Positions 4,410-60,639 of a stretch of DNA of 64,000 bases are shown here, in pieces. Made by a program: the position numbers and the translations under genes. Position 1 is the stretch's first letter; each line of letters opens with the position of its first letter. The notes beneath the pieces were generated by a model. That model saw only the letters and a list, made by a program, of their open reading frames with translations, made no database searches and was not told the DNA's origin. The DNA comes from an uncultured Gammaproteobacteria bacterium (GTDB lineage: Bacteria > Patescibacteriota > Patescibacteriia > UBA11705 > JABHMO01), in assembly GCA_964486065.1 (NCBI GenBank), contig CAZAKN010000001.1, positions 157,640 through 221,639 of the forward strand, written 5' to 3'.

Positions 4410-4791
4410 AAATAGTTTGTAAAAATCCCGCGTTGATGATTATTTGAAAAATCAAAAAAACTGGCAAAGCCATCCAAAACAAAAAAGCCACTATCGCGAA
4501 TATTACCCAAAACAAAAAAATAAAAAAGCGGAAAAAAATTTGCGCCAATCTAATGAAAAAACTGATCAATCTCCCCTGCCAATCATGTTGACCAAACATG
4601 GGTTTAAACAAATTTTTTACCCAAACCGATAAACCGATCTCTCGGTTTCCCGTGCGGATAGTGTTAATCATATTGGCAAAGGCTTTTTTCACTCCGCCCG
4701 TATACCACCAAATCGGCCAGCGTAGCAAATCAAAAATCACTTCATCTAAAATGAATTTTATTGACCTCAAAGCCAGATTATCATTAACCAT
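4402..4791 (-). CDS. Hypothetical small membrane protein
   Basis: 129-aa ORF with C-terminal hydrophobic helices. 4-nt overlap with the clpC start. Confidence 0.35.
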   Translation of the reverse strand: MVNDNLALRSIKFILDEVIFDLLRWPIWWYTGGVKKAFANMINTIRTGNREIGLSVWVKNLFKPMFGQHDWQGRLISFFIRLAQIFFRFFIFLFWVIFAIVAFLFWMALPVFLIFQIIINAGFLQTIYG

Positions 4792-44260: not shown

Positions 44261-44292
44261 AAAAAAGGCGGAAGCTGTTGCTTCCGCCTGAA
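44261..44292 (-). terminator. Terminator of the giant gene (ggcggaagc-tgtt-gcttccgcc, T-run on minus strand)
   Basis: 9-bp stem, A6 before on plus strand. Confidence 0.7.
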
Positions 44293-47300: not shown

Positions 47301-49146
47301 CCACGCCATATTGACACTCACCGACATTGGTCGTGCCACATTGGCGGGTCTGCCCGGGGAAGCAAATGCAACCGTTGTTGACTACACCGTCGCAATCGTC
47401 GTCCAATTCATTGCCACAATCTTCGGCAATGGATTCATCAGCCGAACCTCCCGGTTCAGTGGAGCAACGCGTTTCGGTTTCACCGGCGCATTCCACCACC
47501 CCGACGCCACAAGCGCCGAGACCTTCGCAAGGCTCGCCAATCCCGAATCCCTCGTCAATCTGATCGTCGCAGTTATTATCCACGCCGTCACAGATTTCCA
47601 AGACATCGGGGTTGATGGTCGCCAAAGCGTCATCGCAATCACCTTCACAGATGCGGAAACCGTCTTCGTCCTCATCCGCTTCGTTGGCCGGGATTTGATC
47701 ATCACAATTGTTATCCAGCCCGTCGCAGATTTCCTCCGCTTCCGGATGGATCAACTTGTTCAGATCATTGCATTCCTCGCAAGCCAGAAATCCGTCTTGA
47801 TCAAGGTCAACTTCCGTTTCCAGCTTTTCGCCGTCACAGTTATTGTCCTTGCCGTCGCAAATTTCTTCGGCTTCCGGGAAAACAGCCGGATCCTGATCAT
47901 CGCAGTCTCCCGCGCAATTCAGGATGCCGTCCTCGTCTTGATCAACTTCATCCTCCGGCACTTGGCCGTCGCAGTCGTCGTCAAGACCATTGCATTCCTC
48001 GGCTTCCAAAGCCTGGCTTTCGGAGCCACCGGGCATGGTGGAGCAAATGACTTGCTCGGCATTGTCGGGATCGCATTCGTAAACGCCTTCACCGCAAATA
48101 CCTTGACCGGTGCAAACCTCTCCGACTTCATAGTCTTCGTCGGTTTCACCGTCGCAATCATTGTCCTTACCGTCGCACAGTTCAGCTTCGGCGGGCATAA
48201 CCGCGCCTTCACACTCACCCCATTCCCAAGTTTGATCCTCGGTTTGGAGGCAAGTCTGAATACCGAATTCGCATTCCCCTTCTGCAGTCTCGGGACCGCA
48301 ACGCCGAATATCATTCGGCTGACAAGTGCACTCTTCCTCGTCGGTTTCACCGTCGCAATCATTGTCGCGATCGTCCTCGCAAATCTCCGTCGGATTATCA
48401 GGATCGTCCACATAGCAGACATCCTCACCTTCCGGATATTCGCATCCGTCTTCCGGATCCAGATTGGCATCATGCTTACCACTTTCACAAGCGGTAATCT
48501 CGCACAAGCCTTCTTCGCAAACAAATTCTGCGACTTGCAGACCATCAAACTCAGCCTGACAGCTGTAGCCACATTCTCCGCAGTTTTCCGGATCCTCGGC
48601 CAGATTAAACTCTTCGTCAATCTCGCCATCGCAATCATTGTCCACGCCGTCACAGGTTTCCGTCTCCGGATCCACATTGCCTATGCAATTGGTCCATTGA
48701 CCCTGTTCATCGCAAACACGAAACCCCATTTTGCAAGGGGAAGTGTTTTCCGCGTCGGCGGAACCGCATTCCTCTCGCTCTCCGGGCGAACACTGTCCAT
48801 CCGGAATCACTTCGTCTTCATCACCATCCACCAAGTCGGCATAATCAAGCCAACCATCGTAGAGACAGTAACTGCCTCTACAACTGAAACCGGGTTCGGA
48901 ATAAACATCCAATCCCGCTCTCAGGCAATCTTGATCGGTTTCGCAACCGGTCACGATACAAGTTCCTGACAAGCAAGACGCCTGACTGATGGTACAGTCC
49001 GACGGCGTATCGCACTTCTCCGGGAAATTGACGAGTCCGGATTGATCTCCGTCCTCATCCGCTTTTTTCCCGCCGTTGCCGTCATCACATCCGGCGCCAT
49101 ACAGCGCGAAAAGCGTGATGAAAAAAATGGCCATCAATTGCTTCAT
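44311..49146 (-). CDS. Giant secreted Cys-rich repeat lipoprotein (about 1611 aa). It has about 20 MopE-like putative metal-binding repeats C.G.DNDCDG..DE interleaved with Cys-knot-like modules, and a distinct C-terminal domain. True start is ATG at 49146 (track ORF starts at an upstream TTG)
   Basis: Lipobox LYGAGC. Recurring CDG[VLK]DNDCDG..DE and C.G.G.C.G..EC motifs. RBS aaggagagaatcATG. Confidence 0.75.
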   Translation of the reverse strand: MKQLMAIFFITLFALYGAGCDDGNGGKKADEDGDQSGLVNFPEKCDTPSDCTISQASCLSGTCIVTGCETDQDCLRAGLDVYSEPGFSCRGSYCLYDGWLDYADLVDGDEDEVIPDGQCSPGEREECGSADAENTSPCKMGFRVCDEQGQWTNCIGNVDPETETCDGVDNDCDGEIDEEFNLAEDPENCGECGYSCQAEFDGLQVAEFVCEEGLCEITACESGKHDANLDPEDGCEYPEGEDVCYVDDPDNPTEICEDDRDNDCDGETDEEECTCQPNDIRRCGPETAEGECEFGIQTCLQTEDQTWEWGECEGAVMPAEAELCDGKDNDCDGETDEDYEVGEVCTGQGICGEGVYECDPDNAEQVICSTMPGGSESQALEAEECNGLDDDCDGQVPEDEVDQDEDGILNCAGDCDDQDPAVFPEAEEICDGKDNNCDGEKLETEVDLDQDGFLACEECNDLNKLIHPEAEEICDGLDNNCDDQIPANEADEDEDGFRICEGDCDDALATINPDVLEICDGVDNNCDDQIDEGFGIGEPCEGLGACGVGVVECAGETETRCSTEPGGSADESIAEDCGNELDDDCDGVVNNGCICFPGQTRQCGTTNVGECQYGVETCAEDGKSWLECVGAVEPAEAESCNGLDDDCDGVIPVEEADEDEDGVRVCAGDCNDAEATINPLSLELCDGIDNNCDEQVDEGYFVGSACVGIGACGDTPGTLECATDNSVQCNTMPGGSADASATEVCDNGMDDDCDGLVDLNDDDCNCRPASTRACGPETDQGICEFGVQTCNPAGDGWGECVGAVMPEESELCNGLDDDCDGSVPAEEADEDEDGVRVCAGDCNDAEATINPLSLEICDGLDNNCDEQVDESFGVGNACQGVGACGVGVLECATTTTVMCDTMPGGSADASSEEVCGNRLDDDCDGLVDINDAECVCVAGVTRQCGTTDVGACEYGLETCAEDGKSWLECVGAVEPAEAESCNGLDDDCDGVIPAEEADEDEDGIKVCDNDCDDLDPDNFPGNAELCDGQDNDCDGMVDEDFFIGASCNGIGVCGAGTIECATFNTYRCSTMPGGSEDMSGVESCGNSLDDDCDGSVNEGCTCVAGETRDCGSANEQGICVFGTQTCSPDGMSWGDCLDAIMPEATELCNGLDDDCDGSVPVNENDSDEDGVRICEGDTVDNDSSVYPGASELCDGKDNDLDGQTDEDYFVGALCYGLGACAGPGVIECDGLNDYACSTMPGRSEDMSVVESCDGVDNDCDGTTDEGCICQAGAVRDCGPANEQGICEFGTQVCLDGFTWGDCEDAVMPLTSEVCNDLDDDCDGQVDETFNKSTDEANCGGCGNDCNTLLQNTSATGCVSGVCRVNSCVSGYYDANGNDEDGCEYGPCGMTNGGTEACDGVDNDCNGEVDEGFDLQTDRNHCGACGNSCSYLQYLNVANYSCQEGSCQPDVCNSGYYDVDENPRNGCEYACSPVNPGVEVCDGEDNDCDGRTDEGCLTVHFTCPVDNTLYLVWGKLGTGDNIWDSDPEVSGTKTVSLRDVCVWGNHEDTETPWLEYNCHNETDWLAWPENNGMVTNVTNVELGGGTPYSIQEGFQTKAAVTIDGFDCNDLDL
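45420..48050. repeat. About 510-bp near-identical tandem DNA repeats (about 5-6 copies) inside the giant gene. Each unit encodes ...MPGGS(A/E)D.S...DDDCDG...C.YG.ETC...
   Basis: Long identical nt stretches, for example 46601-46700 vs 47121-47220. The MPGGS-encoding segment recurs at about 45430, 45935, 46440, 46950, 47455 and 48040. Confidence 0.75.
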
Positions 49147-49164
49147 GATTCTCTCCTTTGTTGT

Positions 49165-49181
49165 CCCCAAAAATTTTGGGG
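49165..49181 (-). promoter_or_regulatory. 5'-UTR palindrome CCCCAAAAATTTTGGGG immediately upstream of the RBS of the giant gene
   Basis: Near-perfect inverted repeat. A homologous CCCCCTAAATTTTGGGGGG sits in the same position in gene 53823-54857. Confidence 0.55.
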
Positions 49182-49342
49182 AGATTTAGGAAAACAGTAA
49201 AAGTAAACAAATTGTCAAACTTCACAAACTCTCATTCAAGGGGTTTTACAAATGAACAAATACTTTATTCATTCATAAAAATCCTTGAAGATCATACCTG
49301 CAACTTACCACGATTACTAATAAAAATAAATATTAAGACACA

Positions 49343-49388
49343 ATTTGCAGACATTTAATTTTAGCAAAAATAAGAACTTTTGTCAAGT
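49343..49388 (-). promoter_or_regulatory. Candidate promoter of the giant gene (minus strand TTGACA-17-TAAAAT), giving an about 195-nt 5'-UTR
   Basis: Plus strand tgtcaa at 49383-49388 and atttta at 49360-49365. Confidence 0.45.
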
Positions 49389-49417
49389 GTTGTTATTTAC
49401 ACATTTTTAGCTAATTT

Positions 49418-49450
49418 TAAATAAAAATTCCCCGAGACTGATAGTCTCGG
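49418..49450 (-). terminator. Terminator of gene 49463-51400 (ttccccgagact-gat-agtctcggggaa)
   Basis: 12-bp stem, A-run before on plus strand. Confidence 0.7.
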
Positions 49451-49462
49451 GGAATGATGAGT

Positions 49463-51400
49463 TTAAGGGGTTGGTAATTTTACCCAAATCCCTCTGTCAA
49501 CGCGGGGGTCATCAACGATTTCCTCCGCATTGACCCGGTCTCCATTGTCTTTTCGGTAAAATACCTCCTGAACATGGAAACCCGTCCTCTGGAAGTTGAA
49601 ATGGCTGGAGAAGTGTACTTCAACATACACCACTCCCCCCGAAACATCCTCCAAGTTGAGAGGAATCTGGAAGCTTTTCCCATCTTCCATAATAGGAATA
49701 CCGTCATACATAACAGCATCCCCATCTTGGTTAAAATGGGAAATCACGCCCCTGAGCATTCCTTCCGGAAGACCATCAGGAATATCTCTCATGACAACTC
49801 CGATATTTCCCGAAAGAGGGAAATTATCGGCGACGGGTTGCTCCTCCTCTGAGGCACCATCGTCACCATCGGAATCATCACCATCCTCGTCGTCTTCCTG
49901 CTCGTCGCCATCTGAGATATCGCCATCTTCTTGATCAACCACTTGCTGACAAGTGGTTTCCTCAAAAGTGGCAACAAATCCCAATCCGTGAACATGGTTG
50001 ATGTTTTCCACATCCACGGAAAGAGGACATTCTTCATGAACGAACATTACCTCTTGCAACTGAACGGCTTGAGGATCTGACCAGTTCTCTTGGTCATACA
50101 GCGCGTCAAACCAAATTCTTTTTTGGATAACGCGGCTAAGATCCAGCGACAAAGAGACACATCCGTCTCCATCCAATGCCAACCGGACTTCCTGTTCTCC
50201 ATTGTCAGAAATATATCTGACGGAGACATTATTACAGGAGTGCGGTCCACAGTGGCTCCAAACGGCGCAAATCGTGAGCTCTCCAGCTCCACTTTCATAA
50301 ACATCCTGTTCATCGCCGTCGGTATCGCCATCTTCATCATCGCCGTCCGTGTCGTCGTCTTCATCATCGCCGTCGGTGTCACCATCGGTATCGCCATCCA
50401 TGTCACCGTCTTCATCATCGCCGTCGGTATCACCATCGGTATCGCCATCCATGTCGCCATCTTCATCATCGCCGTCTTCTTGAGGCCGTTCACCTTCCAA
50501 GCAAACGCCTTGGTCACACCAGTAACCATTCCGGCAATCAAAGTCATCCTGACAAGTGGCGAGACATTCACCTTCCTCGCAGACTTCGTTGTCCGCGCAT
50601 AGGGATTTGAACTCGCAGAGATTTCCTTCTCCGCACCTTGCCTCATAGCAAGTACCGAGTTCCATCCCTTCCGGGGGAGTCAAGCACTCGTGATCGTATG
50701 TGCAGGACTGCTTTCCGGCACAACGACCGGTGTGCAGATCGCAATACTGGCTGTTCAGACAAGACTCGGGGATTTCCTCCCCCGTCTCATCCGTACATGG
50801 CGCGTACTGCAAACATGCACCCTCATCTCCACAGTAGAAACCGTGGAGGCAGTCCTCATAACTTCCACATGCATTTGCCTCTTCGCAAATGTTTTCCCTA
50901 CGGTCACACTGCTCCGTCAAGAAACAGTCAGTGTGCTCGCCACAACGACCTTCTTGCCATTGCGTCACGCATTCTTCATGAATGCATACATATTCCTGAC
51001 CTTCCTGCTCAGGCTCACCACAGTCGGAGGCTTCCTCGCACTCCGGCTCATACACGACACAAGTACCCATATAGCAGTACTTGCCCTCGGCGCAATCACG
51101 ATTACTGCGACAAGTTTCGTCGCCATCCGTGATGTCGTCGCCATCCGTGTCGCCGTCGGTCGGCTCATCCCCATCGGAGATGTCGCCGTCCGTGTCGCCG
51201 TCGGTCGTGGAAATCTGCTCAGCGCAGAATCCCGCACTCGTGCAGTACTGCCACCGCGCGCAATCGGCGTCGGTTTCGCACTGCGTTTCTTTGGCGTCCG
51301 AGGATTCTTCTTCCTCGGCTTTTTTCTTGTCGCCACAACCGGCAACAAAACCCGCGAAAGCCACCATCAGCATAAGCGCAAAAATCAGGTTCTTCTTCAT
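49463..51400 (-). CDS. Secreted Cys-rich, acidic DGD-repeat lipoprotein (645 aa), paralog of 51596-53677. Conserved C-terminal YVEVH...DDPRVDRG domain
   Basis: Lipobox FVAGCGD, (DGDTDGDDEDGDM)x2, Cys-rich module, RBS aaggagacagagtaATG. Confidence 0.7.
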   Translation of the reverse strand: MKKNLIFALMLMVAFAGFVAGCGDKKKAEEEESSDAKETQCETDADCARWQYCTSAGFCAEQISTTDGDTDGDISDGDEPTDGDTDGDDITDGDETCRSNRDCAEGKYCYMGTCVVYEPECEEASDCGEPEQEGQEYVCIHEECVTQWQEGRCGEHTDCFLTEQCDRRENICEEANACGSYEDCLHGFYCGDEGACLQYAPCTDETGEEIPESCLNSQYCDLHTGRCAGKQSCTYDHECLTPPEGMELGTCYEARCGEGNLCEFKSLCADNEVCEEGECLATCQDDFDCRNGYWCDQGVCLEGERPQEDGDDEDGDMDGDTDGDTDGDDEDGDMDGDTDGDTDGDDEDDDTDGDDEDGDTDGDEQDVYESGAGELTICAVWSHCGPHSCNNVSVRYISDNGEQEVRLALDGDGCVSLSLDLSRVIQKRIWFDALYDQENWSDPQAVQLQEVMFVHEECPLSVDVENINHVHGLGFVATFEETTCQQVVDQEDGDISDGDEQEDDEDGDDSDGDDGASEEEQPVADNFPLSGNIGVVMRDIPDGLPEGMLRGVISHFNQDGDAVMYDGIPIMEDGKSFQIPLNLEDVSGGVVYVEVHFSSHFNFQRTGFHVQEVFYRKDNGDRVNAEEIVDDPRVDRGIWVKLPTP

Positions 51401-51480
51401 TACTCTGTCTCCTTGCGGGCAACCATGCCCGCTGCTGTTAAGGTTTTTCCGAAATGAAATTTCTGAAAGAACGATATATT

Positions 51481-51509
51481 ATTCTATCAAATTTTGGCAT
51501 TTTTGTCAA
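51481..51509 (-). promoter_or_regulatory. Consensus-like promoter (minus strand TTGACA-17-TAGAAT) for gene 49463-51400
   Basis: Plus strand attcta...17 nt...tgtcaa. Confidence 0.55.
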
Positions 51510-51555
51510 TAGTACTTAGCAAAATTAGTGCATTTGGAAATTTTTGCCTAAATTT

Positions 51556-51580
51556 AAACAAAAACCCGTGCGTTTTACGC
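51556..51580 (-). terminator. Terminator of gene 51596-53677 (cccgtgcg-tttta-cgcacggg)
   Basis: 8-bp stem with flanking A/T runs. Confidence 0.7.
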
Positions 51581-51595
51581 ACGGGTTTGAATTAT

Positions 51596-53677
51596 CTAAT
51601 CAAACTCGCAATAGTCCCCTCTATCAACACGATCATCCAAGATCACTTCAGCTTGAATAGTTTCTCCATTCTGCAAGCCATAAATGACCTTAATCGGAGC
51701 TATGCCCGAAGGATTGAAGTTCCAATTTGGAGTGGAGTGTATTTGCACATACACCACACTGCTTAACGCTTGCTCCAAATCCAAATCATGTGAAAAACAC
51801 TTACCGTTGATCGGGATATTGTCATGAATGACAGAATGACCATCCATGTCAAAGTAAGAAAAATATCCCTTCCATCCTTCTTCGTTAATCGGATAACACG
51901 CGATAAGCGTATTCGGAGGAGCGCTCATGGGAAGGTGCTGATCTTCATCGCCGTCTTCAGCGATATCTTCGTCGCCATCCGGCTCCACAGGCTCATGGCA
52001 AGTGAAATCTTCAAACTCCAGAACATAGCCCCATTCGTCCCAAGAATACCGGACATCTTCCGGCGGAACGACAATAACGCAGTCTTCCATACGATATTCA
52101 GCCGACACGATGGTCGGTTTGGGCCAAATCCAGTTGTTCCCCGTATGCGCGTCAAATCTGAAACGCGCATTCCACACATCATCCAAATCCACTTGATGAG
52201 CAAAACAATTTCCTTGTGTCGGAATATCCAACTCCTGTAGCCCCCCCTCATACAAAGTATAAATCAAGGAAACTTGTTCATATTGCGAAAACCTTTCAGA
52301 GGCACAAACACGCAAAACACCATCTTCCCAATCATCGTCTTCAACGAGATCTTCGTCACCATCAACGGTGATATCCTCATCTCCATCTTCAGCGATATCT
52401 TCGTCGCCATCCGGTTCCGGCTCAGGCAAACACTCGCCTTCCTCGCAACCGTAATAGCATGGTTGACTCTCAACCCAACATACACCTTCGACACAATTAG
52501 GCATGTGATGAACCAACATAGCCTCTTGTGAACCGTCGGAGGATGGGACACAGATCCAACTCTCAATGCAGTCCTGATCCGACATGCATTCTGGTTGCGA
52601 ATTGCAAGCTCCGTTGGAGCAACCGAACTCACAAATTTCTATTAGAATGTTGCAGTAATGATCCTCTTGAACACAGACACCGGACGGGTATACCCGAACA
52701 TTTCCTGTCAAACACTCGGCAGGCAAATTTGTTTCCGAGCAATCGTTGTCGGTTTCACAATAATGCCAATCCGCACGATCAGCCCTTACACACCGACCGT
52801 CCTGACAGACATCACCGGTTGACGGATCACCGTCCACACAATCCACATCTATCTCGCACTCGTTGCCGGGAACGCATTCACCATTCTCGCAAATCTCACC
52901 GTCATCACAGTGGTTACGATATTCACAAACAAGATCAGCACAACGATAATCATAACAAGTACCGTAATCCAATCCTTCCGGCAACTCGCTACAATCATTA
53001 TCACTTTCACAAGCGGAAAGTTTTTCGCAACGACCGGTTTCCTGATTACAATATTGCCCGTTAAAGCAGGCTTCCGCGATTTCCACTCCGTCTTCATTAA
53101 CACAAACATTGTATTGTTTGCATTGATTGACTTCCTGGTCGCAAAAATAACCCTCTCTGCAATCAAGATTTTCCTCGCACTCTCGGGCCGATTCGCAAAA
53201 TCCTTGGCGGTTGCATTCTTCGTACGGGAGGCAATCCACATTATTGTGGCATTCACCCGAACCTTCCATGCATTGGCAATCAACGCAATTCAAGTCTTCT
53301 CTGCAATCCTCCGCGGAGCGGCACTCACATTCAGTGCAACGACTCGCGATACAAAGCTCTCCTGTTTTGCATTGGAAATCATAGCGACAATACCCTTGAC
53401 GATTGCTCGGTTCGGGGTCATCACCGTCTTCCACTTGTTCGTCACCATCAGGGCTGATTTCCGCGTCCAGATCACCGTCCACTTGTTCACTCTCCGTCTC
53501 CGGTACGCAGAAACCATCCGCGCAAAAGAATCCATCATCACATTGCTCATCGGACGAGCAGAGACTGATGGTGAACTCTTCGTCACCATCCAAGATTTCA
53601 CTTTTTTTTCCATCCTCACCGCAACCGGCGAAATAGATGGCAAAAAGCAACAGGACAACAAACTTAAACTGTTTCAT
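51596..53677 (-). CDS. Secreted Cys-rich, acidic repeat lipoprotein (693 aa), paralog of 49463-51400. It carries a duplicated EPDGDEDIAEDGDED segment and the same C-terminal domain
   Basis: Lipobox FAGCGEDG, collinear Cys pattern with the previous gene, C-terminal YVQIH..DDRVDRG. Confidence 0.7.
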   Translation of the reverse strand: MKQFKFVVLLLFAIYFAGCGEDGKKSEILDGDEEFTISLCSSDEQCDDGFFCADGFCVPETESEQVDGDLDAEISPDGDEQVEDGDDPEPSNRQGYCRYDFQCKTGELCIASRCTECECRSAEDCREDLNCVDCQCMEGSGECHNNVDCLPYEECNRQGFCESARECEENLDCREGYFCDQEVNQCKQYNVCVNEDGVEIAEACFNGQYCNQETGRCEKLSACESDNDCSELPEGLDYGTCYDYRCADLVCEYRNHCDDGEICENGECVPGNECEIDVDCVDGDPSTGDVCQDGRCVRADRADWHYCETDNDCSETNLPAECLTGNVRVYPSGVCVQEDHYCNILIEICEFGCSNGACNSQPECMSDQDCIESWICVPSSDGSQEAMLVHHMPNCVEGVCWVESQPCYYGCEEGECLPEPEPDGDEDIAEDGDEDITVDGDEDLVEDDDWEDGVLRVCASERFSQYEQVSLIYTLYEGGLQELDIPTQGNCFAHQVDLDDVWNARFRFDAHTGNNWIWPKPTIVSAEYRMEDCVIVVPPEDVRYSWDEWGYVLEFEDFTCHEPVEPDGDEDIAEDGDEDQHLPMSAPPNTLIACYPINEEGWKGYFSYFDMDGHSVIHDNIPINGKCFSHDLDLEQALSSVVYVQIHSTPNWNFNPSGIAPIKVIYGLQNGETIQAEVILDDRVDRGDYCEFD

Positions 53678-53794
53678 GATATTCTCCTTTTTTTTGATTG
53701 TTTAAAGGAACAAACTAACATTATACTGTAACAAATTTTTAATCTTTTGGCAAGTGCCAAAGGTGATTAATTAAAACACAATAATTAAAAAACC

Positions 53795-53821
53795 ATGCGG
53801 TCAGACCGCATGGTTTGTTTT
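53795..53821. terminator. Bidirectional terminator (ccatgcggtc-aga-ccgcatgg)
   Basis: 9-bp stem flanked by A5 and T7. Confidence 0.7.
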
Positions 53822-53822
53822 T

Positions 53823-54857
53823 TTAAAAGATGCAATAAACCCCTCTATCAACGCGAGGGTCATCCGTGAGCTCCCCAACCTTAACGGAATTTCCGTCATT
53901 GGTCTGAACCTTCATGACGGGAATTCCGGTTCTACGATAGTTGTACTTGGCTCCTTGGTGGAGCTCCACATAAACAGCTCCGTCCAAGGCTTCTTCCAAA
54001 AAGAATGGAAACGAAAATTTGTTTCCATCCAATGGGATACCATCATACTGAACCGAATCCCCATTCATGTCAAAGTACGAAAAGTACCCTGCATAGGCAC
54101 CCGGTGGAGTATCACAAGGCAAATCCACCCAAACCTCTATCTCGTAGAGGTCTGTCCAGTTGCCCGGTTCAGGCCAACAGGCCAACGATTCTCCCGAATC
54201 CCCCGGATCTTCTTCCTCGTCAGTCGCCGGTTCTTCACCGGGATCATCCATTTCTTCGCCCGGGTCCTCTTCGGGATCCTCACCGGGCTCTTCCTCGTCT
54301 TCCGGATCATCCAGATTCTCACCGGCGGTATCCTGGTCTTCCCAGTCTTCCACCGGTTCCTCGCCTTCCGGCTCGGAACTGTCACCGGGCATATCACCGT
54401 CTTCGGGTTCATCACCATCGGGAATATCGCCGTCTTCAACGGCGTTGCCCCAGCCACGAGGCAATTCGCTTTCATCCACGCAGGTACCGAGGATTTGCTC
54501 CTCTCCCAGCCCGGATTTTCCCTTCAAGGACATCTGGAACTTTTCTTCCAGATTGTCCACGCAGACCATGCCGGCGGGGCATTCGGTGATGACGACAGGC
54601 GGATCCTGGAAATGGATCACGCCGTTCATGTCTCTGCCATATTCCATACGGCAGATTTCGGGAACGCAACGCCGCCCCTCGTATCCATCGTAAAAACCTT
54701 CCAGACATATCCAGCCCGGAAGCTCACATTCCGCGTCGGTGAAACACGTCTGCGGACCATCATCCGTGGAGATCGTCCCCATGTCCACCTCGGTGGCACA
54801 ACCGGTAGCAAACATGAGCATTGTAATTATACACACAATAACTTTAACTTTCTTCAT
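53823..54857 (-). CDS. Secreted Cys-rich acidic-repeat lipoprotein (345 aa). N-terminal module shared with 55052 and 56203 genes, C-terminal module shared with 49463 and 51596 genes. Start at ATG 54857
   Basis: Lipobox FATGC, PRGWGNAVEDGDIPDGDEPEDGD segment, C-terminal YVELH..DDPRVDRG, RBS aaggagagaataATG. Confidence 0.7.
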   Translation of the reverse strand: MKKVKVIVCIITMLMFATGCATEVDMGTISTDDGPQTCFTDAECELPGWICLEGFYDGYEGRRCVPEICRMEYGRDMNGVIHFQDPPVVITECPAGMVCVDNLEEKFQMSLKGKSGLGEEQILGTCVDESELPRGWGNAVEDGDIPDGDEPEDGDMPGDSSEPEGEEPVEDWEDQDTAGENLDDPEDEEEPGEDPEEDPGEEMDDPGEEPATDEEEDPGDSGESLACWPEPGNWTDLYEIEVWVDLPCDTPPGAYAGYFSYFDMNGDSVQYDGIPLDGNKFSFPFFLEEALDGAVYVELHQGAKYNYRRTGIPVMKVQTNDGNSVKVGELTDDPRVDRGVYCIF

Positions 54858-54876
54858 TATTCTCTCCTTTGTTTGT

Positions 54877-54895
54877 CCCCCCAAAATTTAGGGGG
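54877..54895 (-). promoter_or_regulatory. 5'-UTR palindrome CCCCCTAAATTTTGGGGGG upstream of the RBS of gene 53823-54857
   Basis: Homolog of the 49165-49181 element. Confidence 0.5.
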
Positions 54896-55018
54896 AAGTT
54901 GAAGTTCTTTGCTTTTTTCAAAGAGCAATTTGATGTTTAAAATTAACAAATTTTTTAATCTTTGTCAATAGCCATTGATTATTCCTTGAAATATCACCTA
55001 AATTTAAATAAAAAAGCT

Positions 55019-55043
55019 CCGTTGGATTTCCAACGGAGCGTTG
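55019..55043. terminator. Terminator (ctccgttgga-tt-tccaacggag)
   Basis: 10-bp stem, T-runs on both strands. Confidence 0.7.
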
Positions 55044-55051
55044 TTTTTTTG

Positions 55052-56035
55052 TTAAAGCTCTCCCAAAGGATAGCCATCACCTTCTTTGTAAGCGCCGATG
55101 TTCATCGGTTCTCCGTTGAAGAATGCGACCACCGGAGGATTATGCCTTCCTTCCCAGCGACTACCGTTTGTCAGATCGGTAGCATAGTTTCCAAGCGAAC
55201 AGTCCGCTTCCGTCAATTCCCAGGAAACGCACTCCCACTCGGCATGATCAATCCCCCAATCATCTTCCATGCATTCACTGAAAGAACACATTCTGTATGA
55301 TGGGTGATCGTTCATGATTTGCCCCCAGCCTCCTTCTTTACAGGAGTCAAAGACCAAACTCCCGTAATAGGACTCCACGATATACTGCCAACAAATGATG
55401 AACCGTCCCGTTTGGAAATGCTCGTCACCATCGGGAATATCTCCGTCTTCGGGCTCGTCGCCGTCTTCCGGTTCATCACCGTCTTCCGGTTCATCACCGT
55501 CTTCAGGTTCGTCACCGTCTACCGGTTCTTCCCGGTCTTCCACCGGTTCTTCGCCTTCCGGCTCGGAACCGTCATCGTCGGGCATATCGCCATCCCCCTC
55601 GGCGTTTCCCCAGCCGTTTTTAATGTCTCCTTCGTACACGCAACGGCCCAGCTTTTCCTCGCGTCGTAGGCCCATGGATTCGGCCAATGCCTCGGCTTCC
55701 TCCTCGGTGAAGCTTCCGTACTCACCTTCCACTTCGTCCAGCGATTCCAGCTGGACACACTCCCAAGCTTCCGGGCAGGCGCTAGTCTTCGGCGATTCAT
55801 ACTGAACCTGTCCGTTTTGACTAATCGAAAATGTCAACCTGCAAAAATCATACAGGCATCTTTTTTCTTCCGGGTTTTCTTTGCTAAGACCGCAAATATA
55901 CCCTTCTTCGCATTCCTTATCTTGAATGCAGATCTCCGGACTTTCGTCAGTTTTCACCGTTCCGAGATCGACGACCGTCTGGCAACCCATTACCCCGACG
56001 ACGATCAAAAACATCAACAATATACTGTAACGCAT
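55052..56035 (-). CDS. Secreted Cys-rich acidic-repeat lipoprotein (328 aa) with (EPEDGD)x5 repeat and a YYGSLVFDSC C-terminal module shared with 56203 gene
   Basis: Lipobox VMGCQT, RBS aaggaggacgccATG. Confidence 0.65.
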   Translation of the reverse strand: MRYSILLMFLIVVGVMGCQTVVDLGTVKTDESPEICIQDKECEEGYICGLSKENPEEKRCLYDFCRLTFSISQNGQVQYESPKTSACPEAWECVQLESLDEVEGEYGSFTEEEAEALAESMGLRREEKLGRCVYEGDIKNGWGNAEGDGDMPDDDGSEPEGEEPVEDREEPVDGDEPEDGDEPEDGDEPEDGDEPEDGDIPDGDEHFQTGRFIICWQYIVESYYGSLVFDSCKEGGWGQIMNDHPSYRMCSFSECMEDDWGIDHAEWECVSWELTEADCSLGNYATDLTNGSRWEGRHNPPVVAFFNGEPMNIGAYKEGDGYPLGEL

Positions 56036-56160
56036 GGCGTCCTCCTTTTTTTTGGGATAAAAATTTTTTGAAAAGAACAATTTATATTATCAAATAATCT
56101 TATTTTTGTCAAGTATTATGCCATTTTTAGTGTTTTTGTAAAATATTTTTTAATATTAAA

Positions 56161-56190
56161 AAATCCGCTCCATTTGGAGCGGATTATGGT
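56161..56190 (-). terminator. Terminator (atccgctcca-tt-tggagcggat)
   Basis: 10-bp stem, A5 before on plus strand. Confidence 0.7.
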
Positions 56191-56202
56191 TGTTTAAAGA
56201 AC

Positions 56203-57072
56203 TTACTCGTCGCCGGGCGCGACGGGCTGTAGATACCAACCCAGATCGTATTCGCCGACGGTCCCCAAGACCTCGTTGAAGGCCACCGACAGCGGCTTTT
56301 TGCTTTCGCCAAGCCAATTGGACCCGTTGGTCAGCGCTACCTTAAAGTTGCCGGATGCACAGGCCTCCGCATCAACGAACCACGCCACACAGTTGCCCAT
56401 ATGGCTGTAAGCCCCGTCTGCGTCTTGCCACTGAGTGTAGCCCGCCGACTCGCAGGAGTCGAAGACCAAGCTACCGTAGTAGCCGGCTGGGATAGCATCC
56501 CAGCACACTTCAATGGCATACTCCTCCGGTAACTCAATCGGCGTTCCGGGATCTTGAGTATCCGGAACATCCCCGTCTTCAGGCTCGTCACCATCGGGGA
56601 TATCACCGTCTTCCGGTTCATCACCGTCTTCGGGTTCGTCGCCATCGGGGATATCGCCGTCTTCAACGGCGTTTCCCCACCCACGAGGCAGGTGCGAGAT
56701 TTTCTCACACTGACCGAGCAACTCGGACTCACTCAGTCCGAGCGTTTCCGAATGATCTTCCTGATCCTCCATGTCCAACACCACGCAAGTGTATTCTTCC
56801 GGACAAGCAGACACTTCCGCCAGATCATCCTGGACTACGCCATGAATGTCTTGCGTGTACTCCAACACGCAAAACGGCGTGCACCGTTTGCCTTCCAGAT
56901 CGCTATAATAACCTTCGGCGCAAATCTGCGCCACTCCACATGTTTCATCCGTCACGCACCGTTCCGGACTTTCGTCCGTTTTGATGGTGCCTAACTCTGC
57001 TTCCGTGTGACAGCCCGCCGTAAGTCCGGCGAAAACCATCACCAACACGATCAAAAAGATCATTCGGTTCAT
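56203..57072 (-). CDS. Secreted Cys-rich acidic-repeat lipoprotein (290 aa), paralog of 55052-56035. Start at ATG 57072
   Basis: Lipobox LTAGC, RBS aaggaggaacccATG, shared PRGWGNAVEDGDIPDGDEPEDGD. Confidence 0.65.
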   Translation of the reverse strand: MNRMIFLIVLVMVFAGLTAGCHTEAELGTIKTDESPERCVTDETCGVAQICAEGYYSDLEGKRCTPFCVLEYTQDIHGVVQDDLAEVSACPEEYTCVVLDMEDQEDHSETLGLSESELLGQCEKISHLPRGWGNAVEDGDIPDGDEPEDGDEPEDGDIPDGDEPEDGDVPDTQDPGTPIELPEEYAIEVCWDAIPAGYYGSLVFDSCESAGYTQWQDADGAYSHMGNCVAWFVDAEACASGNFKVALTNGSNWLGESKKPLSVAFNEVLGTVGEYDLGWYLQPVAPGDE

Positions 57073-57176
57073 GGGTTCCTCCTTGCAACTCCGAAAATCG
57101 GGCTGCGCTAGAATTTTCAAAAAGACCACCTCTGGATTATTCCAGCTTAAAAGCTTAACTCATTAAGCCCTTAAGT

Positions 57177-57213
57177 TGAAGGGAAATTGCATCTTGCAAT
57201 TTCCCGTTTGAGG
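57177..57213 (-). terminator. Terminator (gggaaattgca-tct-tgcaatttccc)
   Basis: 11-bp perfect stem. Confidence 0.65.
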
Positions 57214-57216
57214 TTA

Positions 57217-57666
57217 TTAATTAACCTCTACGGTGTTCTTCAGAACACCCGTCGCGGCCAAAATGCCGAGAACGATTCCCGTCACCCCGCCAATCACCAA
57301 GACGGAGATTGTGGCAGCACCCGGACCGGTGTGCGCCCAATTTTTCACCTTTTGTTGTTCGGCGAGCACCACGCCGGTGCTGTCGTTCACTTGAATGGCG
57401 TTGGCGTCAAACTTCGTTTCATTCACGAGAACCGTGGCGCCGTCGGCGTCCAGCCTTTTGTTCTGTTTGGCTGTGGCGGGGGCTTTTTCCTCCGCTTTCG
57501 CCGGTGGTTTGGGAATGGGTCCCTTGACCGCCACGGTTTTGGTCGCCGGGGCCTTGGGACCTTCTTCTGGCGTCGCTTGAATCTTGTTCTCCCCGGCCAT
57601 GGCCGGGACGACGATCATCATGTTGGCGAAAGCCAACATCAGCAAAATAACGAAAAACTGTTTCAT
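57217..57666 (-). CDS. Small secreted protein with Pro/Ala/Lys-rich linker and C-terminal HTGPG + glycine-zipper TM segment (possible C-terminal anchoring or sorting signal)
   Basis: Signal peptide, PKPPAKAEEKAPATAK linker, C-terminal ATISVLVIGGVTGIVLGILAATGV. Confidence 0.5.
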   Translation of the reverse strand: MKQFFVILLMLAFANMMIVVPAMAGENKIQATPEEGPKAPATKTVAVKGPIPKPPAKAEEKAPATAKQNKRLDADGATVLVNETKFDANAIQVNDSTGVVLAEQQKVKNWAHTGPGAATISVLVIGGVTGIVLGILAATGVLKNTVEVN

Positions 57667-57807
57667 GTCCATGTCTCCTTGCAGGCAAAACGCCCGCTGT
57701 AAGGGGTGGGTAAACTTTCAATGATCTTCGATATCTGAACTTAATAAAATCAGTTGATTTTGTCAAGTTTCCTCTTCTGAAAAAACGATTAATCATTTTT
57801 TCGGAAA

Positions 57808-57838
57808 AAGGCGCGAGGCGAAGCTTCGCCTCGCGCGT
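57808..57838 (-). terminator. Terminator (ggcgcgaggcgaagc-ttcgcctcgcgcg)
   Basis: Long GC-rich palindrome, A-run before on plus strand. Confidence 0.7.
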
Positions 57839-57845
57839 ATTCTTT

Positions 57846-58514
57846 TTAATGAGCTTCCAGCTGGATGGTTCCTGCCGGAACATGCGTGACGAACTTTCTC
57901 GTCTTCGCCGGATCCAGCTTGATCAACGGAAGTCCCTCTTCCTGGAACCTTGCGTCTATCTCGGAATGGATCGTAGCGATGTCCTCATCCGTCAAGACCA
58001 CTTCTTCCGCCGGAAGACGGATCTTTTCAACTCCACCGACTGATGCCGTTGCCAGCACCGTCGGAAATCCTCCGTTTCCTTCCTTTGTGCCGGCATTGCG
58101 GTGGTGAGAACGATTTTTCACCAAACCTCTGCCACGCCAACGCTTACGCGCCGGCTCGCATACCTTCTCGGCATCCACGAACTGGCACCAGGTATTGCAC
58201 TGGTTTGAACTACGGTAGCCCCTGAAACAAGACTCCGCGCCTCCGAGGCACTCGCAACATTCCTTGGGCTTACACTCTTCACTGCCGAAGCAGTAGAGGT
58301 AGCCCTCCAAGACTTCTTTTTCCAGGCCGGCCGTGGCCAAGTTCGTTTCCAGTTCGGCGATCTCCATGTTCGCGACTTTCAACTGTCGCGAAACTTGATC
58401 TGATCTCCGCTCGGCGTCCGTGGTCTGTCCGATCTGGTGGAAGTAAGCCACCAGCACCAAAACCATGATTGCCAAAACGAAGTACAATCCTGTTTTCGAA
58501 GTTTTCTCGCTCAT
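57846..58514 (-). CDS. N-terminally anchored coiled-coil protein with Cys-rich C-terminal domain (start MSEKTSK at 58514, RBS ggagga)
   Basis: TM helix, CFGSEECKPKECCECLGG..C..C Cys cluster. Confidence 0.5.
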   Translation of the reverse strand: MSEKTSKTGLYFVLAIMVLVLVAYFHQIGQTTDAERRSDQVSRQLKVANMEIAELETNLATAGLEKEVLEGYLYCFGSEECKPKECCECLGGAESCFRGYRSSNQCNTWCQFVDAEKVCEPARKRWRGRGLVKNRSHHRNAGTKEGNGGFPTVLATASVGGVEKIRLPAEEVVLTDEDIATIHSEIDARFQEEGLPLIKLDPAKTRKFVTHVPAGTIQLEAH

Positions 58515-58837
58515 GTTTTCCTCCAGGAAAATGTTATTAAAATTTTTCAAAAAACTGTTTATTGGTTTTTACCCAATGCCAAAACTTAGCATAATCAAAA
58601 AAAAGTGTCAAGTACACTTTTGTCATTGATTTCAAGGCTCTGTTCGGTCAATTATTGAGAAAAATCCGAATAACTCTCCAAGCTTATCACTATGTTTTTT
58701 TATGTCAAATTAAACCAATATTTATTCAGATATAAAACACATCTCTAATCAGTCACATAATGAATATTTATACTAATTTTAGATAAAAAAATGGCTACGC
58801 AAATATTTACATAGCCATAAAATCGTTTTTTTGACAA

Positions 58838-60550
58838 TCAGATCAACTTGCTGATCAAAAAGCCAAAAGCATTGACAATAGCGCTCGCCACATTCGTGGC
58901 CAAGTATTTCGCCACTTCCATTCTTTCATCCCATTCCTGTGGCAAATCAACCACACCATTAGAATACAGCACCAAGAAAATTGCTACCGCCAGCATGGCC
59001 ACAGCCAACCAGGTCGGAAAAAGTACCACCACTTGGGCGGACTTATCTTCTTCCTGTTCCGTTTCTTCTTCTTGCGCCATGGGATTGATCAAGCCCGTTG
59101 TTTTTTCAGAGGGAGGATCATTTATCTGTTCAACCATTTCCCGATTGGAAGCTTCAACCTGTGCAATTATTTCTCCCGGATCAGCTTGCATATCCAAGGA
59201 ACGCAAAACCGAAATTATGAATTCCAGCTGTTCCCTCTCCTTTGCCAGAGCTTCTTCTTGCGTATTAATCCGCAACTCTTGATTTCCTTTCAATGCCAGC
59301 AGAATTCTTTCCAGCCCCTCATCCGAATAGGTCGCCACTCGGCGATCTTGACGAAGAGAGCTTTTCATCCGTTCAGCCCAAGCAATTTCATCTTGATAAC
59401 CAGCCTCTTCTTCCAGTTCTTCGCGAAAATCTTCAGCTTCTTCAGGCTCAGCCACGACTTGTTCGGATTCTTGATCCTCAACCTTTTCTTTACACGATGA
59501 TTGTGGCTTCAGATTAACTCTCGTGCTTATGCTCGGAGTTTCATATTTCTCGTCCGTCATGTCAGCTTCATCATCCGTTTCTTGCCCGATTTCCGCAAGC
59601 GTGGCGTCCGCTTCTTCCATAGCGTCTTCATCATCATCCGGCGCTTGATAAGTAATCGGCACATCCACAATCTCGCTCCCACATTTCGGGCATTTACCCA
59701 TGATAAAATCCTCAGTGGAAGCAAAGACTTCAGAGCAAGACTTACATCTGTAAACTTTGTCGGGTGCGGGATCAGGTTTAGACACGGTTTGTTCGGAGGT
59801 GGATTCCGCTTCGCGGGGAATTTGCTCCGGCTCTGCCGGCAATTCTTCCAACACGATAACGGGCGATTCAGGAATTTCTTCGGCCAAAGATTGATCCGTA
59901 AATGATTCGTCTTTTTCATCCGGTAATACAAGTGCGGACAAATCTTTACTTTTCATCTCGTCCGGTGGCGCGACTTGCTCCGAAGATTTTTCACCTTCCT
60001 CTTTAGGTTTAGCGATCTTTGCCGCTTTTTCAGCTTCAGCAAAGAAATCTTCTTCCAATCTTTTCTGTTTTTGATCTTCCGAAAATGGTGCCTCTTTCTT
60101 CTTTTCGCGTTCAGCGCTTTGTTTCAATTTGTTCCCCGCATCATTGTCCATGTATTTACCACACCTGGGACAACGAGCTTGCGTATACTCCGTGCTACTA
60201 TAATCACACTCCGGATGACCGGAACAAACATAGAAACTCTTTTCCTTTTTCTGCGCTTGCTTTCTCTCTTCCCATAAGTGATACAATTCGGCGCTTTTAT
60301 CAACCTCATAGTCCTTAGTTTCCAAATCAGTTTTCCTTTGAAAACTTTCATAAACGACCACCCAAGTTTTATCCTTACTCAAAAGACAAGAGCAGTTACC
60401 ACAATAACCTTCAATATGATCAATGTCATGACGAGAACCGCAATTACCACAAACCAATTTATACACAGTCCCCATGCTTTCCCAATCTTCATGGGCTTGG
60501 GCTTCTTGAGCGTTTTTGGGAAGCTCTTGTTTTTTACTGAAAAATCCCAT
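58838..60550 (-). CDS. Acidic zinc-ribbon-containing protein with C-terminal TM anchor (about 570 aa). Start MGFFSKK at 60550
   Basis: Several CxxC...CxxC pairs (CGNCGS..CGNCSC, CPRCGK, CKSCSE..CPKCGS), RBS aaaggagatgatcATG, C-terminal hydrophobic helix. Confidence 0.5.
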   Translation of the reverse strand: MGFFSKKQELPKNAQEAQAHEDWESMGTVYKLVCGNCGSRHDIDHIEGYCGNCSCLLSKDKTWVVVYESFQRKTDLETKDYEVDKSAELYHLWEERKQAQKKEKSFYVCSGHPECDYSSTEYTQARCPRCGKYMDNDAGNKLKQSAEREKKKEAPFSEDQKQKRLEEDFFAEAEKAAKIAKPKEEGEKSSEQVAPPDEMKSKDLSALVLPDEKDESFTDQSLAEEIPESPVIVLEELPAEPEQIPREAESTSEQTVSKPDPAPDKVYRCKSCSEVFASTEDFIMGKCPKCGSEIVDVPITYQAPDDDEDAMEEADATLAEIGQETDDEADMTDEKYETPSISTRVNLKPQSSCKEKVEDQESEQVVAEPEEAEDFREELEEEAGYQDEIAWAERMKSSLRQDRRVATYSDEGLERILLALKGNQELRINTQEEALAKEREQLEFIISVLRSLDMQADPGEIIAQVEASNREMVEQINDPPSEKTTGLINPMAQEEETEQEEDKSAQVVVLFPTWLAVAMLAVAIFLVLYSNGVVDLPQEWDERMEVAKYLATNVASAIVNAFGFLISKLI

Positions 60551-60639
60551 GATCATCTCCTTTGTAAGGTACCTGCGATTTGTTTTCACACTTAAAGCAT
60601 TGTAGCAATTTAACAATATACGACAAGATTGTCAATCCA

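Follow-up and report, generated by a model that had tools for sequence, protein, structure and literature searches.

A tandem family of modular lipoproteins in a Patescibacteria genome that probably recombines through its acidic linkers

Introduction

Five neighboring lipoprotein genes lie in a 64,000-nucleotide (nt) stretch of DNA from an uncultured bacterium (assembly GCA_964486065.1, contig CAZAKN010000001.1, positions 157,640 to 221,639), which is referred to here as the window. The genes, labelled A to E, share parts of their sequence in different combinations, and this raises the question of how the middle gene, C, came to resemble D and E at its N-terminal end and A and B at its C-terminal end. 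The original prediction, made from the letters of the window, proposed that modules had been shuffled among the five genes. We consider it likely that A to E form a lineage-restricted tandem family of modular surface lipoproteins that recombine via their linkers and carry a diversifying, adhesin- or receptor-like repertoire.

The bacterium appears to belong to the Patescibacteria, or candidate phyla radiation (CPR), near Kuenenbacteria and Falkowbacteria, because the best matches of the window proteins are essentially all from Patescibacteria. The DnaK protein is 79% identical to that of a Candidatus Kuenenbacteria metagenome-assembled genome (MAG) and 74-75% identical to those of Falkowbacteria MAGs. 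CPR bacteria are believed to spend their lives on the surface of other microbes. The surface proteins used for attachment are hardly known and are mostly unannotated orphans, and the locus described here is a concrete candidate. It is also a natural bacterial example of low-complexity linker DNA serving as a joint for protein domain shuffling, and its evolution can be followed between strains, which differ by converted tracts, by the length of their linkers, and by the loss of an entire module. In the following, the allele in the window is called the window strain and is compared mainly with a second strain, L001 (ENA ERZ1757541 contig_11916).

Module architecture of the five lipoproteins

All five genes are encoded on the minus strand, and inspection of the translations by eye found a signal peptide with a lipobox Cys at its end in each. 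A lipobox of the type [LVI][ASTVI][GAS]-C was found in A (…FVAGC), B (…YFAGC), C (…FATGC), D (…GVMGC), and E (…LTAGC), as well as in the downstream neighbor G (…YGAGC). Genes A and B share the order signal peptide, Cys-rich array, acidic linker 1, M1, acidic linker 2, M2. Gene A (49463-51400) encodes a protein of 645 amino acids (aa), in which the signal peptide and Cys-rich region (50486-51334) are followed by linker 1 with its DGD(T/M/E)D repeats (50285-50485), M1 (49937-50284), linker 2 (49838-49936), and M2 (49466-49837). Gene B (51596-53677, 693 aa) has a longer Cys-rich region (52433-53620 with the signal peptide), a linker 1 built on a 24-nt DGDEDIAE repeat (52322-52432), M1 (51986-52321), linker 2 (51938-51985), and M2 (51599-51937).

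Genes D and E have the order signal peptide, N module, linker, M3. In D (55052-56035, 327 aa) the N module (55616-55984) is followed by a linker of GWGNA and (DGDEPE)n (55409-55615) and by M3 (55055-55408), and in E (56203-57072, 289 aa) the corresponding parts are at 56692-57012, 56527-56691, and 56206-56526. Gene C (53823-54857, 344 aa) is chimeric, with a signal peptide, a D/E-type N module (54465-54800), an acidic linker (54189-54464), and an A/B-type M2 (53826-54188).

The paralogs were compared by BLASTP with SEG low-complexity masking and composition-based statistics. The N-terminal module is shared by C and E (42%, 2e-28), D and E (36%, 6e-22), and C and D (33%, 6e-18), while M2, the module with the DDPRVDRG motif, is shared by A and C (43%, 5e-23) and by B and C (45%, 2e-19) and M3, the module with YYGSLVFDSC, by D and E (33%, 2e-14). 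Additionally, A and B match over the N-terminal ~300 aa that hold their collinear Cys-rich regions (34%, 7e-32) and over the C-terminal ~250 aa (29%, 3e-21). The original prediction had named these three modules and the collinear Cys-rich regions and had pointed to C as the gene that links the two subfamilies, and on all of these points it agrees with the alignments. The motifs it quoted need small corrections: A has GVISHFNQDG and not GYFSYFD, B has DDRVDRG without the P, and E has ETC and not EC. It had also warned that the shared modules might be no more than acidic, compositional matches. This can be ruled out because the significant stretches are located in non-acidic globular parts after masking and composition correction.

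A second module, M1, was absent from the original prediction and occupies aa 373-488 of A and aa 453-564 of B. It resembles M2 (hhalign E 6e-5, probability 64%; tblastn of the B M2 against the B M1, 4e-4) and probably arose as an old internal duplicate of it. M3 aligns to M1 and M2 in one register, and the similarity is not significant in either case (hhalign E 0.084 and 0.22, respectively), so M3 was not accepted as a homologue of M1 or M2. The N module was similarly rejected as a homologue of the Cys-rich array of A and B (E 0.14). An AlphaFold2 model of M2 from gene C is an 8-strand all-beta domain with a pLDDT (the model's per-residue confidence) of about 80-85, and M2 is described here as a predicted generic beta-sandwich.

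The acidic linkers as a substrate for recombination

Nucleotide comparison (blastn) between the paralog coding sequences of the window strain finds similarity only in the acidic linkers and at the GWGNA junction, and never in the globular modules. The linkers are composed of tandem repeats of 18, 24, and 27-51 nt. They match between C and E (93% over 71 nt), between D and E (83% over 90 nt), and between C and D (74-79% over 127-152 nt, with a core of 32/33 identical nt). Linker 2 of A also matches the linker of E (74% over 80 nt, 4e-8), a homology that could fuse an N-type gene to M2. No Pfam TSP_3 match to the DGDxDGD linkers was found at E<=1 when thrombospondin type-3-like repeats were considered.

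The core shared by C and D encodes SEPEGEEPVED and is a second linker block of high identity that the original prediction did not include. Its single difference in 33 nt compares with 6.4-7.2 differences expected when codons are drawn independently (P 0.0006-0.003). In C, the block with …SEPEGEEPVEDWED (54332-54387, minus strand) has 89% nt identity to D 55522-55577. The linker of C is a mosaic, because this D-like block comes after a block that is E-like.

Differences between strains

L001 is ~98-99% identical to the window over the aligned blocks and ~99.5% identical outside the hot spots, with a background divergence of 0.3-0.7%. The largest difference is in gene A, where the segment that contains M1 (49901-50308, minus strand) is missing from L001. 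The 408 nt removed are in frame and comprise all of M1 and one linker copy, leaving a gene A of 515 aa. At the junction, a 17-nt imperfect repeat that encodes DGDEQ is present in both linkers, GACGGCGATGAACAGGA and GATGGCGACGAGCAGGA, with 5 nt of perfect identity. This homology is too short for a k-mer assembler to collapse. The difference is best read as a loss in L001, because B has M1 at the same position. Linker lengths also differ: compared with the window, L001 has 192 nt more in B (eight additional 24-nt units, 11 compared with 3), 21 nt more in A, and 18 nt less in D (one 18-nt unit). All coding indels between the two strains are multiples of 3.

A further kind of change was found near the mature N-terminus of E, where ten differences between the window and L001 fall within 19 nt (56977-56998, minus strand). 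At nine of the ten, E of L001 has the same nucleotide as D of L001. Gene D has changed reciprocally at the corresponding site (55949-55970, minus strand, seen in L001), so that D and E of L001 are identical at 37/38 nt. In L001, the only blastn match between paralogs beyond those of the window strain is a 54-nt match at this tract. The pattern is that of a recent ectopic gene conversion between D and E.

The divergence between the strains is patchy. It rises to 5-9% in the stretch from 55.8 to 58.2 kb and to 2-4% between 50.4 and 51.3 kb, where the dN/dS ratio (nonsynonymous to synonymous divergence) is 0.13-0.29. Gene E is the most divergent of the five (dS 0.205, dN/dS 0.13). These values fit imported alleles that are under purifying and not positive selection. 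In a third genome, GCA_964434655.1 (94.7% identical), the C-terminus of A, gene G, and Wzy_C are present in the same order. In L087, the sequence taken from its contig CAYSVU010000001.1, undetermined bases (N) and what looks like an in-frame stop are found at ~630-640, near the start of the G orthologue, which is annotated as 1533 aa compared with 1611 in the window; a scaffolding gap is a more probable cause than biology.

The segment shared by genes C and E

Genes C and E encode the same 24 aa, LPRGWGNAVEDGDIPDGDEPEDGD, at 54393-54464 of C (aa 132-155) and 56620-56691 of E (aa 128-151), both on the minus strand. The GWGNA core of the segment is also kept in D. The original prediction had seen that the two copies differ only at synonymous sites and had attributed this to purifying selection rather than recent gene conversion. 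Over the 72 nt we count exactly 6 differences, all of them at the 16 synonymous sites and none at the 56 nonsynonymous sites. The proportion of synonymous sites that differ (pS) is thus 0.375 and dS is about 0.5. In the flanking modules the synonymous sites are saturated in every pair (pS 0.71-0.90), even where the amino acid is conserved.

When codons are drawn independently from the genes' own usage, 14.5-14.7 differences are expected in the segment (P = 0.0004-0.0006 for the 6 observed), and when they are drawn from the usage of the linkers only, 13.4 are expected (P = 0.002). Identical codons make up 17/23 in the segment (74%) compared with 157/345 at conserved positions elsewhere (45%; binomial P 0.0055). 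Only 4 of the 6 differences are fixed in both strains. Four sites in the segment are polymorphic between the strains, two in C and two in E, and each has the state of the paralog in one strain; in gene C of L001 these are two synonymous variants (GGC>GGG and GGC>GGA) that equal the state in E.

Purifying selection on the segment is thus real, as had been proposed, and it is the exclusion of conversion that the codon counts and the paralog-matching variants do not support. The segment is younger than its flanks, and an exchange between C and E is required because its ancestry is more recent than theirs. The exchange took place by conversion or recombination, and selection has preserved the segment afterwards.

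Relatives of the modules

Searches for A to E in Pfam-A and NCBIfam gave nothing above noise for N, M1, M2, M3, or the Cys-rich arrays, and a PDB sequence search of the modules gave no match. An exhaustive HMMER search with a profile of N+M2 against 1.84 billion representative proteins, which covers the C-terminal module whose presence in other genomes the original prediction had left to be checked, found proteins of this locus only. Word-seeded searches with C, with B, and with a profile of D, E, and the D/E-like homologue described below found this locus and one further protein, P0005. A scan of GTDB genomes with C and two scans of JGI metagenomes found no relatives, and a literature search on CPR cysteine-rich lipoproteins and PF11617 found nothing relevant. 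No silent donor cassettes were found in the window, where tblastn with all modules matches only the five genes.

P0005 is a lipoprotein whose Cys-rich units are of the B type and whose C-terminal module is a different one. It is encoded on two 4.6-kb Logan contigs with a GC content of 0.50-0.67, L085 (SRR28370465) and L086 (SRR28370467). On L085, a D/E-like gene with N+M3 (462-1232) is followed by P0005 (1700-3367) and by a G-like gene (3580-4629). The upstream neighbor is a lipoprotein of 256 aa whose N module, Pro/acidic linker, and M3 make it collinear with D and E; it matches the N-terminal region of E (signal peptide and N, 3e-6) and M3 of D (4e-4). The downstream neighbor is a G-like lipoprotein with MopE repeats and a stalk of DxD repeats. 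The gene order D/E-like, B-like, G-like is therefore repeated in a very different, high-GC genome. A ClfB SD-repeat match to the PEPD linker of the 256-aa homologue is compositional.

The last Cys-rich units of B (52412-52654, minus strand, aa 342-422) are the part that most resembles P0005, with 79% protein identity and 71% DNA identity over the final 61 aa. Only 19/44 conserved codons are identical. The unit is old and strongly constrained, and a recent horizontal transfer was ruled out because the synonymous sites are saturated. The C-terminal module of G was also compared with the C-terminus of P0005, and the match is not significant (E 0.18).

The N modules of C, D, and E are 38-42% identical to each other and 19-26% identical to that of the 256-aa outgroup. 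The combination of N with M3 is found in the outgroup as well as in D and E. By parsimony, N+M3 therefore looks ancestral, and C looks like a derived chimera with an acquired A/B-type M2.

Proposed mechanism and alternative explanations

The module-shuffling reading proposed from the window sequence is supported by the linker similarity and by the M1 loss in the sister strain, and it can be extended as follows. Each protein consists of a lipobox signal peptide, a disulfide-rich N-terminal part (the N module or the longer Cys-rich array), and one or two beta-rich modules of ~110 aa. The modules are joined by acidic D/G/E/P tandem-repeat linkers, and it is the DNA of these linkers that would act as the recombination substrate. 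Four processes appear to operate. Unequal or microhomology recombination between linkers adds, drops, and re-pairs modules, giving C as N + M2 and A with or without M1, and linker repeat numbers expand and contract. Short ectopic conversion tracts homogenize the linker-proximal and N-terminal stretches between paralogs, and the products are kept under purifying selection (strain-level dN/dS 0.13-0.29).

An alternative history would be plain duplication and divergence along a tree of ((A,B),(C,(D,E))), starting from a single ancestor with a signal peptide, a Cys-rich part, a linker, and a beta module. M3 would then have arisen from M2 by fast divergence in the D/E lineage, and C would have kept ancestral traits at each end. 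In favor of this, M1, M2, and M3 are all beta-rich modules of ~110 aa with a C(W/Y) strand at the start, and the three can be aligned in a single register. A CxxDxxC start and acidic linkers are common to all of the proteins. We nevertheless regard it as unlikely. M3 is recognizable in a very distant homologue, which argues for an old, distinct module, and the M2 of C is 43-45% identical to that of A and B while the N module of C has no detectable similarity to either of them. Module loss and linker recombination are, moreover, seen directly between strains. The evidence from the strains also bears on a second account, in which the 24-aa identity of C and E is due to very strong purifying selection on an old segment with no conversion. 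That all 6 differences are synonymous, with none at the 56 nonsynonymous sites, and that D keeps the GWGNA core would fit such selection. The differences are, however, under half the saturation expectation (6 compared with 13.4-14.7, P 0.0004-0.002), and conserved codons in the adjacent modules are saturated and only 45% identical compared with 74% in the segment (P 0.0055). The strain-polymorphic sites in the segment have the state of the paralog, and the D-E tract shows that conversion operates in the locus, which leaves selection alone slightly less probable than plain duplication. Least probable is an artefact, with modules that are no more than acidic low-complexity matches or mosaics produced by faulty metagenome assembly. 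In its favor, the linkers are of strongly low complexity, their similarity is partly compositional, and all of the sequences are metagenome-assembled. Against this, the matches in non-acidic parts remain significant after SEG and composition correction, gene C recurs in assemblies from ENA, Logan, and NCBI, and the M1-containing gene A is found in NCBI and Logan assemblies, with the exact protein present in the independent Logan assembly of SRR7048224. The junction homology of the M1 deletion (5 nt perfect, 17 nt imperfect) is too short for k-mer collapse, and the coding indels are all in frame.

Several points weigh against recombination through the linkers and the role proposed for it. The comparison is of two near-complete alleles of the locus and one fragment, all of them metagenome assemblies compared at the assembly level. 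A collapsed assembly could explain the difference in repeat number in B, and the M1 deletion is supported by assembled contigs and not by reads. A single distant homologue, whose pairwise E-values are modest (3e-6 and 4e-4), underlies the argument for an ancestral N+M3 architecture. With an hhalign E of 0.22 between M2 and M3, a tree would not formally separate out a scenario without module replacement. The structure models of the N module and M3 are of low confidence. Finally, the surface location, lipidation, and binding are deduced from sequence features only.

Gene neighborhood and codon usage

The downstream gene G (44311-49146, minus strand) encodes a lipoprotein of 1611 aa in which Pfam recognizes 22 repeats of the MopE 'putative metal-binding motif' (PF11617, Cu-binding_MopE, 3.5e-117) and which has a C-terminal all-Cys/Trp module. 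Its internal repeats have a period of ~500 nt, and several of its strain variants equal other repeat units of G, which suggests conversion within the gene. Upstream of E, gene F (57217-57672, minus strand) encodes 151 aa with a signal peptide, a Pro/Lys-rich stretch, and a C-terminal membrane anchor, and gene H (57846-58550) encodes a small envelope protein without a family assignment. F likewise has no family assignment, and F and H both have the high GC content at third codon positions (GC3) described below and lie within the strain-divergence hot spot, and F has several in-frame indels between the strains. Between these genes and Wzz, 58838-60616 encodes a highly acidic 592-aa protein to which profile searches assigned no family. 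It matches zinc ribbons weakly at several places and has a membrane segment at its C-terminus.

The cluster lies between the surface-glycan genes Wzz and Wzy_C/GT4. The remainder of the window encodes chromosomal housekeeping functions, all on the minus strand, including a ClpB-like protein, UvrD, GatA, LigA, RseP, hrcA-grpE-dnaK-dnaJ, glycosyltransferases, Wzy_C, and Wzz. All sizeable open reading frames in the window that match a family are encoded on the minus strand, and the GC skew is negative across 1-64000. No tRNA gene was found in the whole 64-kb window, so a tRNA/integrase border of the cluster was ruled out, and no recombinase was noted in the cluster.

The genes from G through H (44311-58550) form an island of codon usage, with a GC3 of 0.53-0.70 (0.45 in B) compared with 0.32-0.49 in the flanks and 0.35 in dnaK. 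The usage of GAC and GAG in the island is roughly twice that of the flanks. The raised GC3 could result from a foreign origin or from GC-biased gene conversion.

Promoters, terminators, and leaders

One promoter cassette, CTTGACAAAA…TTTGnTAnnAT, is found in six copies on the minus strand before G, A, B, C, D, and F, together with an identical AAGGAG ribosome-binding site. It has a TTGACA, a 17-nt spacer, and a TG-extended -10. The promoter of G (TTGACA-17-TAAAAT) is at 49358-49386 within a cassette at 49351-49391, and those of A, B, and D are at 51481-51509 (cassette 51474-51514), 53725-53753 (cassette 53718-53758), and 56084-56112 (cassette 56077-56117), respectively. The cassettes of C and F are at ~54933-54973 and ~57731-57771.

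A strong intrinsic terminator, also on the minus strand, follows each gene except F: at 44266-44289 (G), 49427-49455 (A), 51562-51588 (B), 53790-53816 (C), 55016-55039 (D), and 56162-56185 (E). Most members of the family thus appear to have a transcript of their own. The probable exception is F and E, which would share one, because F has the family promoter and no terminator parts it from E. The duplications took in whole transcription units and not coding sequences alone.

Small hairpins are also present in the 5' untranslated regions just before the ribosome-binding site, on the minus strand. Those of G (~49150-49200) and C (~54860-54900) have CCCC-AAATTTT-GGGG in common, and those of A (~51405-51435) and F (~57675-57700) have GCGGGC…GCC(C/T)GC in common. 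Where the A and F copies vary between the strains, the variants of one match those of the other, which suggests that conversion also takes place in the leaders.

Inferred function

Under the mechanism favored here, recombination through the linkers, a lipid anchor would hold each protein at the cell surface, where the acidic linkers would hold out the beta-sandwich binding modules, and the repertoire would be encoded within a surface-glycan locus. Surface exposure of the five proteins and a binding or adhesin-like role in an episymbiotic bacterium would fit the predicted lipid anchor, the disulfide-rich and beta-sandwich modules on acidic stalks, the location between Wzz and Wzy_C/GT4, the repeat-length polymorphism, and the recombination-driven variation.

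A broader proposal, which is speculative and which we hold to be improbable as a whole, is that the ~14-kb GC3-rich island (G, A to E, F, and H) is a combinatorial attachment toolkit of an episymbiotic CPR lineage. The linkers would be selected as joints that re-pair binding modules at population timescales, and an ancient transfer would explain why the high-GC bacterium, possibly a host, carries the trio of D/E-like, B-like, and G-like genes as well. That transfer, or GC-biased conversion in a constantly converting family, would then have left the raised GC3 as its footprint.

Comparison with known systems

Multigene families of variable surface lipoproteins are known in Mollicutes, Neisseria, Borrelia, and Gram-positive cocci. 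The Vlp (Mycoplasma hyorhinis), Vsa (M. pulmonis), and Vsp (M. bovis) families resemble the present locus in that tandem lipoprotein genes, mostly with separate promoters, are found in a small-genome, host-dependent bacterium, their in-frame repeats vary between strains, and recombination makes chimeric genes. The strain-variable tandem repeats have their counterpart here in the eight additional 24-nt units in B (perhaps an assembly collapse), the additional 21 nt in A, and the 18 nt missing from D. Unlike in the Mollicute families, the repeats here are linkers between globular Cys-rich and beta-sandwich modules and do not form the bulk of the protein, and there is no sequence relationship in Pfam or NCBIfam. 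The on/off switch of Vlp and Vsa was not found in the cluster, where the promoter spacers are conserved mixed sequence with no homopolymer, intergenic strain indels fall outside the spacers, and no invertible element was noted.

The short-tract, non-reciprocal transfer between paralogs that alters a surface protein in Neisseria pilE/pilS and Borrelia vlsE is paralleled by the D-E tract, with nine of its ten differences matching the paralog, and by the paralog-matching variants of C and E. In contrast to those systems, which draw on silent promoterless donor cassettes, the exchange here appears to take place between expressed paralogs. The MSCRAMM SD-repeat, M-like, and alpha-C/Rib proteins of Gram-positive cocci share the arrangement of an anchor, a low-complexity stalk, and a binding module, which is Ig-like in those proteins and would be a generic beta-sandwich here, as well as the repeat-number polymorphism and the intra- and intergenic recombination at repeats. 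Their anchor is a C-terminal LPXTG whereas the anchor here is an N-terminal lipid (lipobox), and the likeness in sequence is only compositional. The PF11617 MopE proteins are represented by the neighbor G with its 22 repeats. G resembles A to E in its promoter type, lipobox, and acidic stretches and lies in the same codon-usage island, and the association recurs on the high-GC contig. A to E themselves have no match to PF11617 at E<=1, and their Cys-rich units follow another pattern.

The phenomenon is thus known from pathogens, and the value of this locus lies in the organism and the new modules and not in a new principle. What appears to be new here is that the modules have no known relatives, that they are found in a CPR genome, and that expressed paralogs serve as the conversion partners.

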